Positions 53,301-59,300 of a DNA stretch of 64,000 nt are shown here, in pieces. The stretch comes from Endomicrobiales bacterium (lineage in GTDB: Bacteria > Elusimicrobiota > Endomicrobiia > Endomicrobiales > CAWCFT01): positions 419,884 through 483,883 of the forward strand of contig CAWCFT010000001.1 of assembly GCA_963794945.1 (NCBI GenBank). The letters run 5' to 3'. Position 1 is the first letter of the stretch. Each line of letters starts with the position of its first letter. The position numbers are program-made.

Positions 53301-56300
53301 TTGAGGGCCAATACGAACAGCTCGACAAGATAAGCCGCGATTATGATTTCAGGAACCAAAATTTCGAAACCAGGCTGCGCGAATTAGAAGGCTCGCAGCC
53401 CGGAACAGAAAACAACATAGTTGAAGACGAAGCAGAATCCGCTTAAAGCAATTGAAGCAACACAGGTTTGATGTTGAGTTAGTTTAGATAAAAGCGCAAG
53501 AGGGGAACATGAAAAATATGAATTCTTTAAAAATGCCGGCTCTCAACGACAAGAGCATTATTATTATCCTGCGTTTCCTGGTCATATTAGTAACATTTTT
53601 TCTCACAATCTATGATTTTAGGCAGGATATAAGGCCTGCGGTGTTAACGCTGGTCTTTGGCCTTTTCCTTCTTTCCGATTTCGTTCTAATTTTCGTGCCC
53701 AGGTTTGTCTTCACTATGAAAGGCTTACGAAACGGTATTTTTCTGCTAGACGTTATCCTTATATCCTGCGTTATTTACCTGACCGGCGGCCTTTAGACAG
53801 ACCTTTACCTCATATATTTTCTTATAATATTTATGTCCAGCAGCGGAAGCAACATCAAGCACGCGTTCATCATGACTATCGTCGTCGCAGCCATCTACGT
53901 GTTCCTTCTAGCCCGCATGGGTTTTTCTTTTTCGCTTTCGAACCCCGGCCTGCTACTGAGAATACCGTTTATATTCATTCTTTCTTTCGTTTTTCTCTAT
54001 TACGCGCAGGAGGAAAAAAGACTGATCCAGATACAGGCGGAAAGAGTAGACCGCCTGACAATGATAGGTGAAATGACAGCAGACATAATACATGAGATCA
54101 AGAACCCGCTTACCGTTATACTAGGCAACGCCCAAATACTGGATGACGTTGACCCTGATGTGGCGCGCAAAGAACTATGGCCGGACATTGTCAAGGCTAC
54201 GCAACTGCTTTCTACAAAGATCAATTCGATCCTTGCCTTTGCGCGCAACGACAATTCCGAGACAATGGGGCCGATTGATATCGTGTCTACTCTGCGCTCG
54301 GCGCTGGAAATGTGCCGCAGTCAACTGTTAAGGGACCATATAAAGATCAACGAGAAGTTCCATGAAGGGCTCCCTACGATCTTCGGCAGCCGAAACGGGA
54401 TTGACCAAGTGTTCGTCAATATCATTACGAATGCCAATTATGCTCTGACAAAATTCAAGCCAAAAGAAGACAGGAAGCTGTACATTACAATAGAGAAGCA
54501 GGGGAAAAAGATAGTTATTACGTTTAAAGATAACGGCCCCGGCATTGACAAAGAAGGGCTTGAAAAGATCTTTACACCGTTCTACACAACTAAACCAGAA
54601 GGCGAAGGAACTGGCCTGGGCCTGAGCATTTGCTACAAGATAATTAAGCAGCACGGCGGTGACATTCGGGTATCCAGTAAAGCCGGTTCTGGGCGCGGCC
54701 TTTATAATAGAGTTACCCATCACAGAAACGTTCTAAATAGCGCGGCCTAATATATCAAAGGATTAAAATGGACCATACCAGGATATTGCTATCACACGGA
54801 GCAGGCGGAAGGCTGACACACGAGCTAGTTGATAAGCTTTTCAAGAAACATTTTTCTAACCCTGTACTGAACGCTCTTGATGATTCGGCAGAACTGAAAA
54901 TCAGCAACCCCGGCAGCGCGCGTCTTGCTTTCACAACCGATGGCTTCGTAGTAAACCCGATTTTTTTCCCGGGCGGCGACATAGGTAAGCTTAGCGTTTG
55001 CGGCACCGTTAATGACCTCGCGATGAAAGGCGCGGTGCCTTTATGGATATCTGTGGCCGTTATAATCGAAGAAGGCCTTGAGATATCGGTGCTGGAAAAG
55101 ATCGTAAAGTCTCTGGCGGATACAGCCCGAAAAGCCGGTGTTTCAATTGTGACCGGCGACACAAAGGTGGTTGAGAAAGGGAAAGCCGACAAGATATTCA
55201 TCACGACATCCGGTATAGGTATTATTGAAAATGGCGTAAACATCTCCGGCTCCAACGCGAAAACCGGGGATGACGTAATGGTCAACGGGACCATGGGAGA
55301 CCATGGAATATCAGTGATCGCTGCGAGAAACGATTTCAAGTTCAGTTCAAAACTAAAGAGCGACTGCGCTCCCTTGAACCACCTTGTCAGTAAAATACTT
55401 TGCGCCTCAAAAGATATCAACGTTATAAGGGACCCTACACGAGGCGGGCTTGCCACAACTCTAAACGAAATAGCAGCTTCATCAGACATCGGCATAATAC
55501 TCGATGAGAGACTCATACCTGTGAGAAAAGAGGTTAAGTCAGCATGCGCTTTGCTGGGGTTCGACCCGCTCTACGCTGCCAATGAGGGCAAGCTAATCGC
55601 CATAACACCAAATAAAGTATCGTCAAAAGTTCTAGAAGCCATGAGGGCAAATCAGCTTGGCAGGAACTCAGCGGTCATTGGGAAGGTTGTCAACTCGCCT
55701 AAAGGCGTTCGGCTTAGTACTGCAAGTGGCTCCATGCGGCCGCTTATAATGCTCGAAGGCGAGCAGCTACCGAGGATCTGTTAACCAATGAAGGTATTAG
55801 TCACAGGCGCCAACGGATTCGTAGGAAGCCACATTGTGGAAGAACTCGCAAAGGAAGGCTTTGACGTCACCTGTATGGTCAGAAAGACCAGCGACCTTAA
55901 ATGGCTTTCAGGAGTTAAAGTTAATTTCGTTAATTGTGATATGGCAGTCACTGAAGATTTCGGAAATGCCGTAAACGGATATGACGCAGTCGTTCATTCA
56001 GCCGGAGTGTTAAGGGCAAAAGACTCCAATCAATATTACGCAATTAACCGAGACTCCACCAAGAGGCTAGCGCTGTCGGTCCTTAAACACAATCCGGATC
56101 TTAAGAGGTTTATCTACATTTCTTCTCTTGCCGCACAGGGCCCGGCCATTGGGCGGAAATGTGCCAACCCCGAACCGGGGCTCGAGAACCCTGTTTCGGA
56201 CTACGGCAAAAGCAAACTTGCGGGCGAGAGAGAACTCCGGATACTAACCGATAGGATACCCTGCACGGTATTACGTCCTGCAGCTGTCTACGGACCCCGA

Positions 56301-59300
56301 GATAAAGATATATTCATGTTCTTTAAACTTGTAAGTTTGGGCCTTCGGCCGAAACCCTTACGAGAACGTTTTCTTCAGCTATTGTATGTTGAGGATGCCG
56401 CCAAGGCTGTAACCGCTGCCCTCAAGTTTGAAGGCCACGGTTTTGATGTATACCCGCTGGCAGAAAAGACTGTTTACGGGTGGGAAGAACTCGGAAATAT
56501 TATAGCTGGATCTGTAAACCAGAGGACAATACCCATTCCCGTACCTAGAATCGCCTTCCAGGCCGCTGCATTGTTATCTGAATTTGCAGGTATTTTCACG
56601 AATAGACCATCGGTAATAAACAGACAGAAAGTTGATGAGATGCTGATGCCTTACTGGACCTGCGATGTATCAAAAACTGAAAAAGATTTGCAGCTGGACT
56701 TTACAAAACTTTTTTTTGGTGGTAAAATAACATATCAATGGTATAAAAGCAACAATTGGTTGTGAATATCCTTTTTAACGGTTTAGATTTTCGATGCGGA
56801 GGGACGAGTTAATGCACAACGATATTTTCAACAAGTGTGTAAAGTTCACAAGCGCCAGAGAGATAATGGCGGCAGGTGTTTATCCCTACTTTAAAAAAAT
56901 TGAATCGGCGCAGGGGCCGGAGGTTGTAATAGAGGGGAAAAAGAAAGTAGTAATATGTTCAAATAACTATCTGGGACTTGCAAACCATCCGAAAGTCAAA
57001 GAAGCTAGCAACGAAGCCGTCCGCAAATACGGCACTTCCTGCACGGGTTCACGTTTTCTCAACGGCACCAATGACCTGCACGAAAAGGTTGAACGTAAAT
57101 TCGCCCGTTTCGTGGGAAAAGAATCGGCAATACTTTTTACCACAGGCCACCACTCTAACCTCGGAGCCATATCTACCCTCGTGGGTAAAACGGACATCGT
57201 TCTTACCGATAAGCTTGACCACGCTTCAATCATAGACGGCTGCCGCCTCTCCATGGGTGAAATGGTCAGGTTCCGCCACAATGACATGGGCGACCTTGAA
57301 CGCCAGCTTATACGCTACCAGGATAAGGGCAAGCTGATAGTTGTTGACGGCGTCTTCAGCATGGAAGGTGACATAACGAATCTTCCCGAGATCGTTAAAC
57401 TCGCAAAGAACTACGGCGCAAGAGTGATGGTAGATGAGGCTCATTCGCTTGGTGTCCTTGGGGACACAGGCAGAGGGACAGGAGAACATTTCGGCCTGGA
57501 AACCGACGTTGATGTGGTCATGGCTACAGCATCAAAATCGCTGGCCTCGATAGGCGGTTTCATCGCCGGAAGGGAAGAAGTCGTCCATTACGTTAAACAT
57601 CTTTCGCGTTCCCTAATATTTACAGCGAGCCTTCCTCCCGCCTGTGTAGGCGCTATAGACGCTGCGCTCGATATAATAGAAAAGGAACCTGAAAGAAGGC
57701 ACAGGCTGTGGGAGAACACTAGAAAGATGAAAGACGGCTTCGAAGCGCTTGGTTTCAATACTAGGACCAGTGAATCGCCTATAATTCCCATAACCGTTGG
57801 CGAAGACATGAAAGCGTTTCAGATGTGCCGCATACTTTTTGATGAAGGCGTGTTCACATCGCCTGTAGTAAGCCCTGCGGTGCCGGAAGGCCAGGCGATA
57901 ATACGGACCAGCTATATGGCAACCCACACCGACAGCCAGCTCGATTTTGTCCTCGACACCTTTGAGAGGGTCGGCAAGCAGCTGGGCATTATTCCAGGTG
58001 GGACAAGCCGCTCAAAACCCAGGCCTGAACCAAAGTGGAAGTTCGCTTTTTCCAGGGAACAGATGGTAGCAGCATCCAAACGGTGGGTAAAAAACCTATG
58101 GAATTTCAATAATAATTAACAGTATGATCGGGAATATTTTATAGATTGTTTGACCATTAAAATCTTCCGCACAGAAACTAGCGGAATAATAGGAGAAATT
58201 TATGGCAGTAAAAAAAGTGAAGAAAGTGGCTGAAGTGCAAGCAGCAACAGCAGTCGCAGAACCGAAGAAGCCAGCGAAAAAAGCTAAAAAGGCGGCAACA
58301 GTGAAGACTCCTGTTGATCAAAAATCTTACGTGGTAGTAGACCACCCTCAGGAAGGCGAGATAATCTCTGGGCTGCATTATGCGATACGTATAGGAGCGT
58401 CGGATAACGGTTCGGTAGAGATAGCTTTTGATTGCGGCGAGTGGCAGCCCTGCAGAGCATCCGCCGGGTATTGGTGGTTTGATTGGGGATATTTTACACC
58501 CGGAATCCACAAAATAGCGGTGCGTTTGCGCGATGCCGAAGGCGGAACTATCAAAAAAACTCCTGCTGTGAAATGCGAAGTCAAATAAAAACCGTCTATA
58601 AATCTTTATTATATCACCGCACTTGCTATTTATAAGGTGCAAAAAGGGAGAGTTATGGAGTTAACGCCAGGTGAAAGGGAACAGATTTATCAGCAAGAAA
58701 AAGCCCTAAGGAGCGGCTCTAAAGGGAACTCAATCGAGATAATACTCGTGGCCGCAGCAGCGGTCTTGGGATTCGCTGGGTTTTTAATGCTTATCCAGAA
58801 ACCCAACCGCAGCGTCAAGATAGAAGATCTGCGCAAGGCTTATGATGGCTTGAGTCCTGAAGAAGAGTAAATAACCCGGCTTTAATGAGTCGGCGCCAAA
58901 GGATGATTAATGTATTTAAAGAGAGTTGAAATGTGCGGTTTCAAATCGTTCGCCGACAGGACCAGGCTTGATTTTGAGCCTGGTATTTCTGCGATTGTAG
59001 GGCCCAACGGCTGCGGCAAATCAAATATTTCAGATTCCATACGCTGGTGCCTTGGAGAACAAAGCGCGCGTTCCATGCGCAGCCACCAGATGCTTGACGT
59101 AATATTCGGCGGGTCGCATTCCCGCCAGACAACGGGCATGGCTGAAGTATCGCTTACATTTGATAATTCAAAGAACATACTCCCTATAGATTATTCAGAG
59201 ATAACCGTTACCCGCAGGCTATTCCGCAGCGGCGAGAGTGAGTTCTACATAAACAAAGCTCAGTGCAGGCTCAAAGACATCCGAGACCTGTTCCTTGACA

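Follow-up and report, generated by a model that had tools for sequence, protein, structure and literature searches.

A probable ceramide operon in an Endomicrobiales bacterium and the apparent displacement of its bCerS gene by an imported bCerS-SDR pair

In the window analyzed here, a stretch of 64,000 nucleotides from an Endomicrobiales bacterium (genome G000), a ceramide-reductase-family gene (cerR) and a serine-palmitoyltransferase-like gene (spt) lie side by side with no ceramide synthase gene (bCerS) next to them. This raises the question of whether the two genes belong to a ceramide pathway and, if so, what became of the synthase. The explanation that we favor, and consider probable as a whole, is that they are two genes of a bacterial ceramide operon ancestral in Endomicrobiales, that the bCerS of this operon was displaced by an imported bCerS-SDR module, and that the SDR is KDSR-like, reducing before acylation.

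The cerR-spt locus and its empty bCerS slot

The first-pass annotation had placed cerR and spt at 55788-58119, and both open reading frames proved intact there, encoding a CerR-family reductase and an Spt-like enzyme with a spacing of 28 bp (Table 1). The gene upstream, which we take to be hypE from reading its sequence, is a neighbor common to G031, G045, G065, G151, and G218, and the gene order hypE-cerR-spt-bCerS-small ORF-smc is found in G031, G065, and G151. The small ORF, in which a Pfam scan found no family, comes after bCerS in relatives that have bCerS and directly after spt in G000, G045, and G218. A tblastn search of positions 57901-59000 for a bCerS remnant returned nothing below an E value of 0.39. 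The ancestral bCerS has been cleanly deleted from its slot in the G000 operon, and the neighborhood is otherwise identical. Scans for promoters and terminators gave counts in the range of chance (7 versus 4.8 and 1 versus 5.2, respectively). Three sequencing runs contained <10% of the sequence words, and their contigs represent the organism or close kin at ~2x depth; the single 187-base RNA-library contig within spt is no evidence of expression.

Table 1. Features of the cerR-spt locus in the window and of the bCerS-SDR pair on contig C6
Feature	Position	Strand	Remark
hypE (presumed)	54768..55784	+	Conserved upstream neighbor; synteny marker outside the pathway
cerR, ceramide-reductase-family extended SDR, 325 aa	55788..56765	+	Intact ORF
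spt, serine-palmitoyltransferase-like PLP enzyme, 441 aa	56794..58119	+	Intact ORF
Empty bCerS slot, 82-bp gap	58120..58201	.	Site of the ancestral bCerS (~1.1 kb) in relatives
128-aa ORF	58202..58588	+	Conserved downstream neighbor before smc; synteny marker
bCerS, Bacteroidota-type (type-2)	C6 14396-15514		Imported copy, paired with SDR
SDR, classical	C6 ~13495-14288		Partner of C6 bCerS

Against the window spt, the Spt model NF047600 scored 540.6 bits, the best of 14 models, and the Kbl and BioF models reached at most 427.8 bits, in agreement with the first-pass annotation. Because the curated cutoff of NF047600 (the CFB serine palmitoyltransferase equivalog) is 640 bits, we file the enzyme as Spt-like and not as a member of that equivalog. 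Its best PDB match was a bacterial serine palmitoyltransferase (8GUH/3A2B; E = 2e-122), with 412 bits to solved Spt, 339 to Kbl/BioF, and 262 to cysteate acyltransferase. In a FastTree phylogeny of 26 rows, it fell, with a support of 99, into a group that contains E. coli Spt and the above-cutoff Spts and is distinct from the BioF/Kbl copies. A separate BioF, also claimed earlier, is encoded on contig C4 beside a bioA-type aminotransferase (456.7 bits, over a cutoff of 426.45). Grouping with known Spt, a separate BioF, an adjoining cerR, and the trio in relatives all point to the Spt/Spt-like clade, and the enzyme is predicted to form 3-ketosphinganine from serine. It is quite unlikely that it takes another amino acid or acyl donor (for a deoxy, sulfono, or other aminolipid) and yields a ceramide analogue: the score under the curated cutoff would fit such an enzyme, and phylogeny is the sole basis on which Spt-like clades are assigned in the available text of PMC11334938, but the PDB scores, the grouping with above-cutoff Spts, and the cerR and bCerS genes that flank spt in relatives argue against it.

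The window cerR encodes a full-length extended-SDR homologue of the reductase from known ceramide clusters. When G000 is searched with the reductase of the E. coli BL21 ceramide cluster, this gene comes out first (E = 7.5e-31, against 3e-11 for the second match), at 30% identity over 311 aa; the role of that reductase is itself a proposal in the available text of PMC9386255. The top plasmid matches of cerR adjoin bCerS or lie within 2 kb of it, in Rubrobacter, Aureispira, and Streptomyces. By eye, the protein begins at its nucleotide-binding motif and has no obvious signal peptide. A search for solved bCerS or CerR structures found none.

The order cerR-spt-bCerS, which had been described as conserved across Endomicrobiales, was indeed kept in 26 of 29 relative loci (the best-scoring Spt matches, nearly all from the same order), and cerR was upstream of spt in 28 of them. 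The three loci that break the order are L017, at a contig end; G045, without cerR and bCerS; and G049, in which bCerS is relocated. Among 75 same-order genomes, we found an Spt orthologue in 68, a bCerS-family gene in 71, and cerR in 70; four small-genome members (G002, G022, G055, and G171) have no Spt orthologue. Thus, the operon is widespread, as had been thought, and the suggestion that the whole order likely makes ceramides is too broad. Judged from its genes, this bacterium is very probably a producer of ceramide lipids. Elusimicrobiota, including the gut-symbiont family, would accordingly join the likely ceramide makers, a modest addition given that production is already predicted in 40 phyla in the available text of PMC11334938. 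G000 also carries two GT21 glycosyltransferases, matching the two ceramide-glucosyltransferase-like genes reported before; a squalene-hopene cyclase was sought in this 86%-complete assembly, and none was found.

The bCerS-SDR pair on contig C6 and its carriers

A bCerS-family search of G000 returned the copy on C6 as the only match, which bears out the earlier statement that the operon bCerS is gone and that a different one is paired with an SDR gene. The C6 bCerS is full-length with a GNAT domain, is 29% identical to E. coli YghO over 376 aa (E = 1e-50), and sits in one quick tree with YghO and spt-adjacent copies; NCBIfam models gave no match to bCerS. It is 46% identical to a GNAT protein of Bacteroides (B. 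finegoldii), which we infer to be the Bacteroides bCerS, whereas the ancestral bCerS is 28% identical to that protein and 37% to YghO. A single clade for the Elusimicrobiota type-2 bCerS was rejected (p-AU = 7e-9); monophyly of the copies of G000 and the G045/G218 genus was not rejected (p-AU = 0.22), and the insertion sites of the pair differ between the two. We rejected an origin of C6 by contamination: the neighboring mnmA is 56-62% identical to same-order genomes versus 47% to an outside genome, and the even GC across the pair also counts against contamination.

The first-pass annotation had held that every genome with the pair lost the ancestral bCerS. This is not the case, since the pair coexists with a full-length spt-adjacent bCerS in G172 (97% complete) and G250 (95%). 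The ancestral gene was lost in five of the seven Elusimicrobiota carriers and kept in two, and a second bCerS copy is also retained by four more carriers, which belong to other phyla. Overall, an intact ancestral-type bCerS is lacking in 6 of 12 known carriers and kept in 6, counts that overstate independence because the carriers are related; an Spt orthologue is present in all 12. The ancestral bCerS is deleted in G000, G218, G086, and G323, and in G209 it is cut to a remnant of ~85 codons after cerR-spt. Both bCerS and cerR are deleted in G045 (99% complete), where hypE and spt are ~135 bp apart and the best CerR match genome-wide has an E value of only 4.6e-9. A clear cerR is present in seven carriers, including G000, only a distant cerR-like gene in four, and none in one. 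Type-2 bCerS occurs without the SDR in four genomes, and the SDR occurs without type-2 bCerS in G056 and G208.

The G000 deletion is internal to its contig, and the flanking sequence is in place on either side. This, the same loss in carriers that are 99%, 96%, 94%, and 88% complete, and the fact that G209 retains only a remnant make it improbable that nothing was displaced, the pair being an add-on for a second ceramide species and the ancestral bCerS having moved or being missing from the assembly; such a reading would suit a genome only 85.9% complete, the half of known carriers that keep both bCerS copies, and the location of the G049 bCerS away from spt. Displacement of the native G000 bCerS by an imported two-gene module is supported.

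The SDR family and its likeness to KDSR

We found the SDR family in 8 of 401 genomes of the phylum. The G000 copy is shifted in frame by one base at about codon 220, probably through an assembly error; when 20 distinct conserved genes of this assembly were tested, 7 of them, smc included, had frameshifts. Of the family's loci, 21 of 32 from metagenomes and 12 of 15 from genomes have Spt, a related synthase, or bCerS nearby; for distant SDRs, the figure is 2 of 48 loci. Loci L180 and L189 have spt-bCerS-SDR runs whose Spts exceed the cutoff (683 and 692 bits), and the DNA fetched for them contains no cerR; many other members adjoin a synthase directly, with no bCerS in the fetched DNA, and L169 and L171 have the order PKS-synthase-SDR. 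Three members precede a class III aminotransferase, and many of the neighboring synthases score best to BioF, under the BioF cutoff; thus, substrates within the family may differ. A plasmid-collection search with the SDR returned nothing at an E value of 1e-25.

Residues T10, G11, G15, G17, S139, Y152, and K156 were invariant in 40 family members, giving the family the classical SDR pattern of TGxxxGxG, catalytic Ser, and YxxxK. These features are listed for KDSR in the available text of PMC9278070 and, because they are common to most SDRs, are weak as evidence for KDSR. Downstream of the catalytic residues, the family has PADIDTPQ and the Glu, with ExxxMPxW replacing the ENxTKP half, and so departs from the KDSR/TSC10 segment (P-x-D-x-D-T-P ... 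E-N-x-T-K-P) in its second half; we drew the form of this segment from the 8JAT alignment and the consensus of the next-tier matches described below, and its defining status is our judgment. An invariant Arg36 fits NADP(H) use.

The KDSR name had been said to rest on database labels. These remain part of its basis, and our count reproduced the earlier one (of the 31 SDR homologues with a visible JGI name among 120 listed, 16 are called "3-dehydrosphinganine reductase"); gene context and nearest relatives have now been added. When the C-terminal half of the family was searched against 1.84 billion proteins, a PxDxDT motif (our own pattern) occurred in 73 of the next 114 listed matches beyond the family. 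Among these matches are an orthologue of TSC10 (E = 2e-53 to 8JAT; next, 1e-19) and a protein from an oomycete that bears the name 3-dehydrosphinganine reductase. As far as these matches tell, the nearest outside relatives of the family are KDSR-type proteins, eukaryotic KDSRs among them. In a quick tree, the family formed its own clade (support, 99) beside KDSR-type proteins and was not nested with eukaryotic KDSRs, in a topology whose deep branches are not resolved. As previously noted, no solved KDSR is among the top PDB matches: TSC10 was outside the top 60 for the full SDR or its profile, which returned generic SDRs, and 8JAT ranked 46th of 208 for the C-terminal half. The post-catalytic segment searched alone gave no match at an E value of 10. 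A fold search with a confident SDR model (pLDDT, 93.7) returned dozens of tied SDRs and no KDSR/8JAT row among the top rows; such ties do not exclude the SDR from the KDSR family. Collectively, these comparisons suggest that the SDR, in its own clade and with part of the KDSR motif missing, probably functions like KDSR.

A proposed pathway and its counterparts in known systems

From the genes, their order, deletions, distribution, and trees, we propose enzyme activities, a lipid product, and an order of steps. Spt would form 3-ketosphinganine from serine and a fatty acyl thioester, and CerR would reduce the keto group, which in Caulobacter follows N-acylation. With the operon bCerS deleted, N-acylation would come from the imported Bacteroidota-type bCerS on C6, which appears to travel with the SDR as a two-gene module. 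By analogy with eukaryotic KDSR, the most likely reaction of the SDR is a cytoplasmic, NADPH-dependent reduction of the free 3-keto long-chain base, in which case the module would run reduce-then-acylate and, once gained, would make the resident bCerS and CerR redundant. The carriers could then represent stages, from both kept (G172 and G250) through a remnant (G209) and deletion of bCerS (G000, G218, G086, and G323) to loss of cerR as well (G045).

The loss of cerR in G045 is the best single argument for this role of the SDR. Taken further, a laterally spread module of bCerS and a KDSR sister may replace both downstream enzymes and switch the pathway to reduce-then-acylate wholly in the cytoplasm, with G045 complete and G000, G218, G086, G323, G209, G172, and G250 intermediate; we put this forward tentatively. 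It is rather unlikely that, with operon and displacement both real, the SDR acts on acylated keto-ceramide, substituting for CerR in the cytoplasm, or on some other amino-ketone lipid, with G000 using the ordinary Spt, bCerS, and CerR route and its own SDR copy perhaps being a true pseudogene. The retention of cerR in G000 and most carriers, the frameshift in the G000 SDR, the family's own C-terminal motif and clade, and the members beside class III aminotransferases or BioF-scoring synthases are what such a reading would predict, but KDSR-type proteins are the nearest outside relatives, many members adjoin a keto-base synthase with no bCerS in the fetched DNA, and frameshifts are common in this assembly, which weighs against a pseudogene.

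The proposed role of the SDR bears on a disputed point, the sequence in which bacteria carry out the steps of ceramide synthesis (PMC11087976). The one bacterial KDSR with shown activity, Bacteroides thetaiotaomicron BT_0972, seems to be essential, which prevented a test of it in vivo (PMC11087976). An SDR family that is small, non-essential, and gene-linked to bCerS and Spt, and a genome with Spt, bCerS, and the SDR without CerR, would offer a direct test; since the synthase appears to have been swapped for an imported module with a KDSR-like gene, these relatives may serve as natural test cases. According to the available text of PMC9278070, BT_0972 is likewise a classical SDR with TGxxxGxG and YxxxK, and its host, too, encodes homologues of Spt, bCerS, and CerR; the bCerS paired with the C6 SDR is of the Bacteroides type. 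Compared by description, BT_0972 is unclustered with spt, whereas the C6 SDR is rare and gene-linked to bCerS.

The Caulobacter crescentus and E. coli BL21 pathway (Spt, bCerS/YghO, and CerR; PMC11087976 and the available text of PMC9386255) uses the same gene families, clustered in the relatives, and the E. coli BL21 Spt and reductase best match the window genes in G000. In contrast to that pathway, no ACP or acyl-ACP synthetase gene lies between or beside the window cerR and spt, the model that the window Spt fits best is the Bacteroidota (CFB) one, and G000 has as its bCerS a distant copy of imported origin, linked to an additional SDR. Eukaryotic KDSR/TSC10 (8JAT) shares with the SDR family the SDR fold and, downstream of the catalytic YxxxK, a loop of the Pro-x-Asp type with a Glu farther on; it differs in having ENxTKP in place of ExxxMPxW, and the SDR family is a separate clade for which TSC10 is not the top PDB match by structure or by sequence. 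PfSgaC of Pseudomonas fluorescens, whose activity is only proposed in PMC12134224, is a KDSR-like SDR clustered with a keto-base enzyme, as in the SDR family; its cluster has a PKS, whereas the C6 SDR is instead paired with bCerS. The PKS-synthase-SDR order of L169 and L171 resembles the PfSgaABC gene set (PMC12134224), a likeness in gene order.

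cerR and spt in the window and across Endomicrobiales

The first-pass annotation had reported a ceramide-reductase-family gene (cerR) followed by a serine palmitoyltransferase-like gene (spt), and we found both as intact plus-strand open reading frames (ORFs). Its reading of spt was borne out: the protein scored best on the CFB serine palmitoyltransferase model (540.6 bits, below the cutoff of 640; next model, 113 bits lower), its closest solved structure was a bacterial Spt (E = 2e-122), and in a tree it grouped with above-cutoff Spts and the Escherichia coli Spt, separate from BioF and Kbl copies (support, 99). 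The sole other close Spt paralog in this genome (G000) was an above-cutoff BioF adjoining a bioA-kind class III aminotransferase. With the reductase of the E. coli BL21 ceramide cluster (yghO-ligase-reductase-acp-spt) as the query, the best match in G000 was the window cerR (E = 7.5e-31; runner-up, 3e-11), whose top plasmid matches adjoin genes for bacterial ceramide synthase (bCerS).

A bCerS-family gene was present in 172 of 201 genomes sampled from the phylum. The 75 same-order genomes among them, 63 of which form one large family (f2), included 68 with an Spt ortholog (E of 1e-120 or better), 71 with a bCerS-family gene, and 70 with cerR. Family f2 is probably Endomicrobiaceae, judged by its many members and their small genomes. 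The proposed conservation of a cerR-spt-bCerS operon in relatives held, with this order in 26 of 29 loci examined. The full ancestral block, hypE-cerR-spt-bCerS-small ORF-smc, occurs in genomes G031, G065, and G151. From this block, bCerS is cleanly excised in G000 and G218, and both cerR and bCerS are excised in G045, where hypE lies ~135 bp from spt.

Several minor observations concern this region. Several Endomicrobiales conserve a gene for a 128-aa protein that separates smc from the ceramide operon. Two f2 members with small, 99% complete genomes (G022 and G002) have adjacent full-length cerR and bCerS and no Spt ortholog anywhere in the genome, which may reflect pathway decay or salvage of host-derived long-chain bases. 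G171 has broken copies of cerR and bCerS, and G055 is without cerR, spt, and bCerS. Second Spt-like genes lie in longer open frames (560 to 570 aa) in family f19.

Coordinates of the features discussed (L, locus; G, genome; C, contig)
Feature	Location	Strand	Remarks
cerR	window 55788-56765	+	intact, 325 aa
spt	window 56794-58119	+	intact, 441 aa
128-aa protein gene	window 58202-58588		Lys/Ala-rich N terminus, no Pfam family
hypF, smc, RNase R-like gene	window 44601-46805, 49571-51515, 58910-62375		spans listed by coordinate, not by gene; hypF and smc split across frames; RNase R-like gene as two overlapping ORFs
Second-type bCerS	G000, C6:14396-15514		sole bCerS-family match in G000; classical SDR next, same strand
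bCerS remnant	L094 1183-1434 (G209:C23)		~85 codons, after cerR-spt
cerR-bCerS	L070 (G022:C1:852000-864000)		
cerR-bCerS	L284 (G002:C11:102000-111000)		
Second Spt-like genes	L115 (G035:C30), L116 (G023:C25)		
SDR, class III aminotransferase	L083 5853-7214, L084 5876-7237, L195 468-1838		
SDR, myo-inositol-1-phosphate synthase, PgpA	L182 124-2830		
SDR, bCerS, GtrA, acyltransferase	L085 1219-7164		
OlsB-like, OlsA-like, GT21	L279 4033-7138 (G000:C1, about 232000-235100)		acyltransferases under cutoff
Second GT21	L278 8507-9739 (G000:C15)		HpnI-like, under cutoff

A second-type bCerS paired with an SDR

Both GC and the mnmA gene place contig C6 in the order of this organism. Its bCerS is 46% identical to a Bacteroides finegoldii GNAT protein and 29% to YghO, whereas the corresponding values for the ancestral, operon type are 28% and 37%; judged by these identities, the C6 bCerS is of a different type. 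In a quick bCerS tree (58 rows), spt-adjacent copies broadly tracked species groups, and the second type joined the Bacteroides copy and mixed Endomicrobiales, Elusimicrobiales, Nitrospirota, and Bacillota-labelled genomes. A single Elusimicrobiota clade for the second type was rejected (p-AU = 7e-9), in line with lateral spread.

The reading frame of the neighboring SDR shifts by one base within a run of A residues near codon 220. This is likely an assembly error, since 7 of 20 distinct conserved G000 genes checked, smc included, are split likewise (21 rows, with hypF twice; one multiframe row represented two paralogs). The G000 assembly is prone to single-base indels.

We searched a C-terminal-half profile of the SDR family against 1.84 billion proteins. 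Among the 150 matches listed, the top tier was the family itself; the next tier, which contains a few family-like rows, had a PPDTDTP...ENxTKP-type segment in 73 of the last 114 matches (strict pattern). It included an ortholog of TSC10, the eukaryotic 3-ketosphinganine reductase (KDSR) (8JAT, E = 2e-53; next, 1e-19), and an oomycete 3-dehydrosphinganine reductase, and the best single-domain PDB match of its profile was the TSC10 structure 8JAT. Counting against a KDSR assignment, the SDR family forms its own clade without the ENxTKP segment, 8JAT was not among its top matches in sequence and structure searches, and many synthases beside the SDR score highest on BioF (see gene context below). 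As previously counted, 16 of the 31 JGI-named homologs among the matches listed are labelled 3-dehydrosphinganine reductase; these labels are automatic. We read the SDR as a sister family that probably works like KDSR rather than as a KDSR member.

Loss of resident genes among carriers and the order of steps

Of 401 phylum genomes, 8 yielded a member of the SDR family, which adjoins the second-type bCerS in 7. The first-pass annotation held that every genome with this pair had lost the ancestral bCerS, but only five of the seven Elusimicrobiota pair carriers lack it (G000, 86% complete; G045, 99%; G218, 88%; G086, 96%; G323, 94%); G172 (97%) and G250 (95%) keep a full-length copy beside spt. 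Both presence and absence were seen within one genus (g61). Outside the phylum, four related carriers (G203 to G206) retain an ancestral-type bCerS, and the Nitrospirota carrier G209 has a remnant. Altogether, an intact ancestral-type bCerS was missing in 6 of 12 carriers, and an Spt ortholog was present in all 12. A clear cerR is retained in G000, G218, G203 to G206, and G209, and a distant one (27 to 32%) in G086, G172, G250, and G323; it was not found in G045 (best match, E = 4.6e-9). Four genomes with the second-type bCerS and without the SDR all keep both bCerS copies. The carrier genomes are mutually related, and loss counts are given without a statistic.

In the canonical route, as described in PMC11087976, bCerS acylates 3-ketosphinganine and CerR then reduces the product in the periplasm. 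We infer that Spt would make 3-ketosphinganine and that, most likely, the imported SDR would reduce it first, in the cytoplasm, with bCerS acylating afterwards. Such a pair would render the resident bCerS and CerR dispensable and thus account for the graded losses. For G000, this would mean Spt together with the imported bCerS and a choice of two possible reductases. The strongest single argument for this role of the SDR comes from one genome, G045, where the SDR is the only known reductase type. The pathway as such is already known. The variant seen here is a mobile bCerS-SDR module that appears to replace bCerS in stages and, in one genome, CerR, and it offers a direct test of the disputed step order.

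Earlier reports describe in vitro KDSR activity for BT_0972 (PMC9278070), a proposed role for PfSgaC (PMC12134224), and Spt-like genes spread over 38 phyla, with a total of 40 (PMC11334938 and its preprint); related reports are PMC9386255, PMC10865984, and PMC10191378. "Elusimicrob" occurs 0 times in the main text of PMC11334938 and the preprint, and Elusimicrobiota may already be among the 38 phyla named in the supplement. The main text of PMC11257099, a paper on Endomicrobiaceae, contains neither "sphingo" nor "ceramide"; in four of its five supplement files "ceramide" is absent as well, and the "sphingo" places shown are taxon names. Among the publication titles listed, none dealt with Elusimicrobiota sphingolipids or ceramides, with Endomicrobia serine palmitoyltransferase, or with horizontal KDSR with ceramide synthase in bacteria.

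Gene context of the SDR family and other lipid genes

At 15 genome loci of the SDR family (48% identity or more), the SDR was adjacent to bCerS in nine, to an oxoamine synthase in three, to a class III aminotransferase in two, and to none of these in one. The best 80 of 488 metagenome loci comprised 32 family members (47% or more; one of the loci duplicates G209) and 48 distant ones (29 to 39%). Spt, a related synthase, or bCerS lay near 21 of the 32 family loci, with an aminotransferase at 1 and none at 10, 4 of these on contigs of <2 kb; by comparison, Spt, a related synthase, or bCerS lay near only 2 of the 48 distant loci, one with a KDSR-type motif. Loci L180 and L189 are spt-bCerS-SDR runs with Spt above the cutoff (683 and 692 bits), and at L169 and L171 polyketide synthase (PKS) domains precede the synthase. 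Many synthases neighboring the SDR score highest on BioF, below the cutoff. Two genomes of Bacteroidota that encode the SDR, a synthase, and bCerS had no cerR match at E of 1e-12, and a third had a weak one.

Other arrangements were also seen. Metagenome contigs L169 to L172 and L185 to L187 carry a PKS or FabI-like gene, an oxoamine synthase, and the SDR, some adding a phosphopantetheinyl transferase and an acyltransferase; these clusters are sphingoid-base-like. Where the SDR directly precedes a class III aminotransferase, the best model for the latter is PigE, under the cutoff, and two Methylococcales genomes also encode bCerS. In G000, the OlsB-like and OlsA-like acyltransferases followed by a GT21 glycosyltransferase form a possible glycosylated ornithine-lipid operon. 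Squalene-hopene cyclase was not found in G000, and its second GT21 is a candidate ceramide glycosyltransferase. Loci L182 and L085 are possible inositol-sphingolipid loci.
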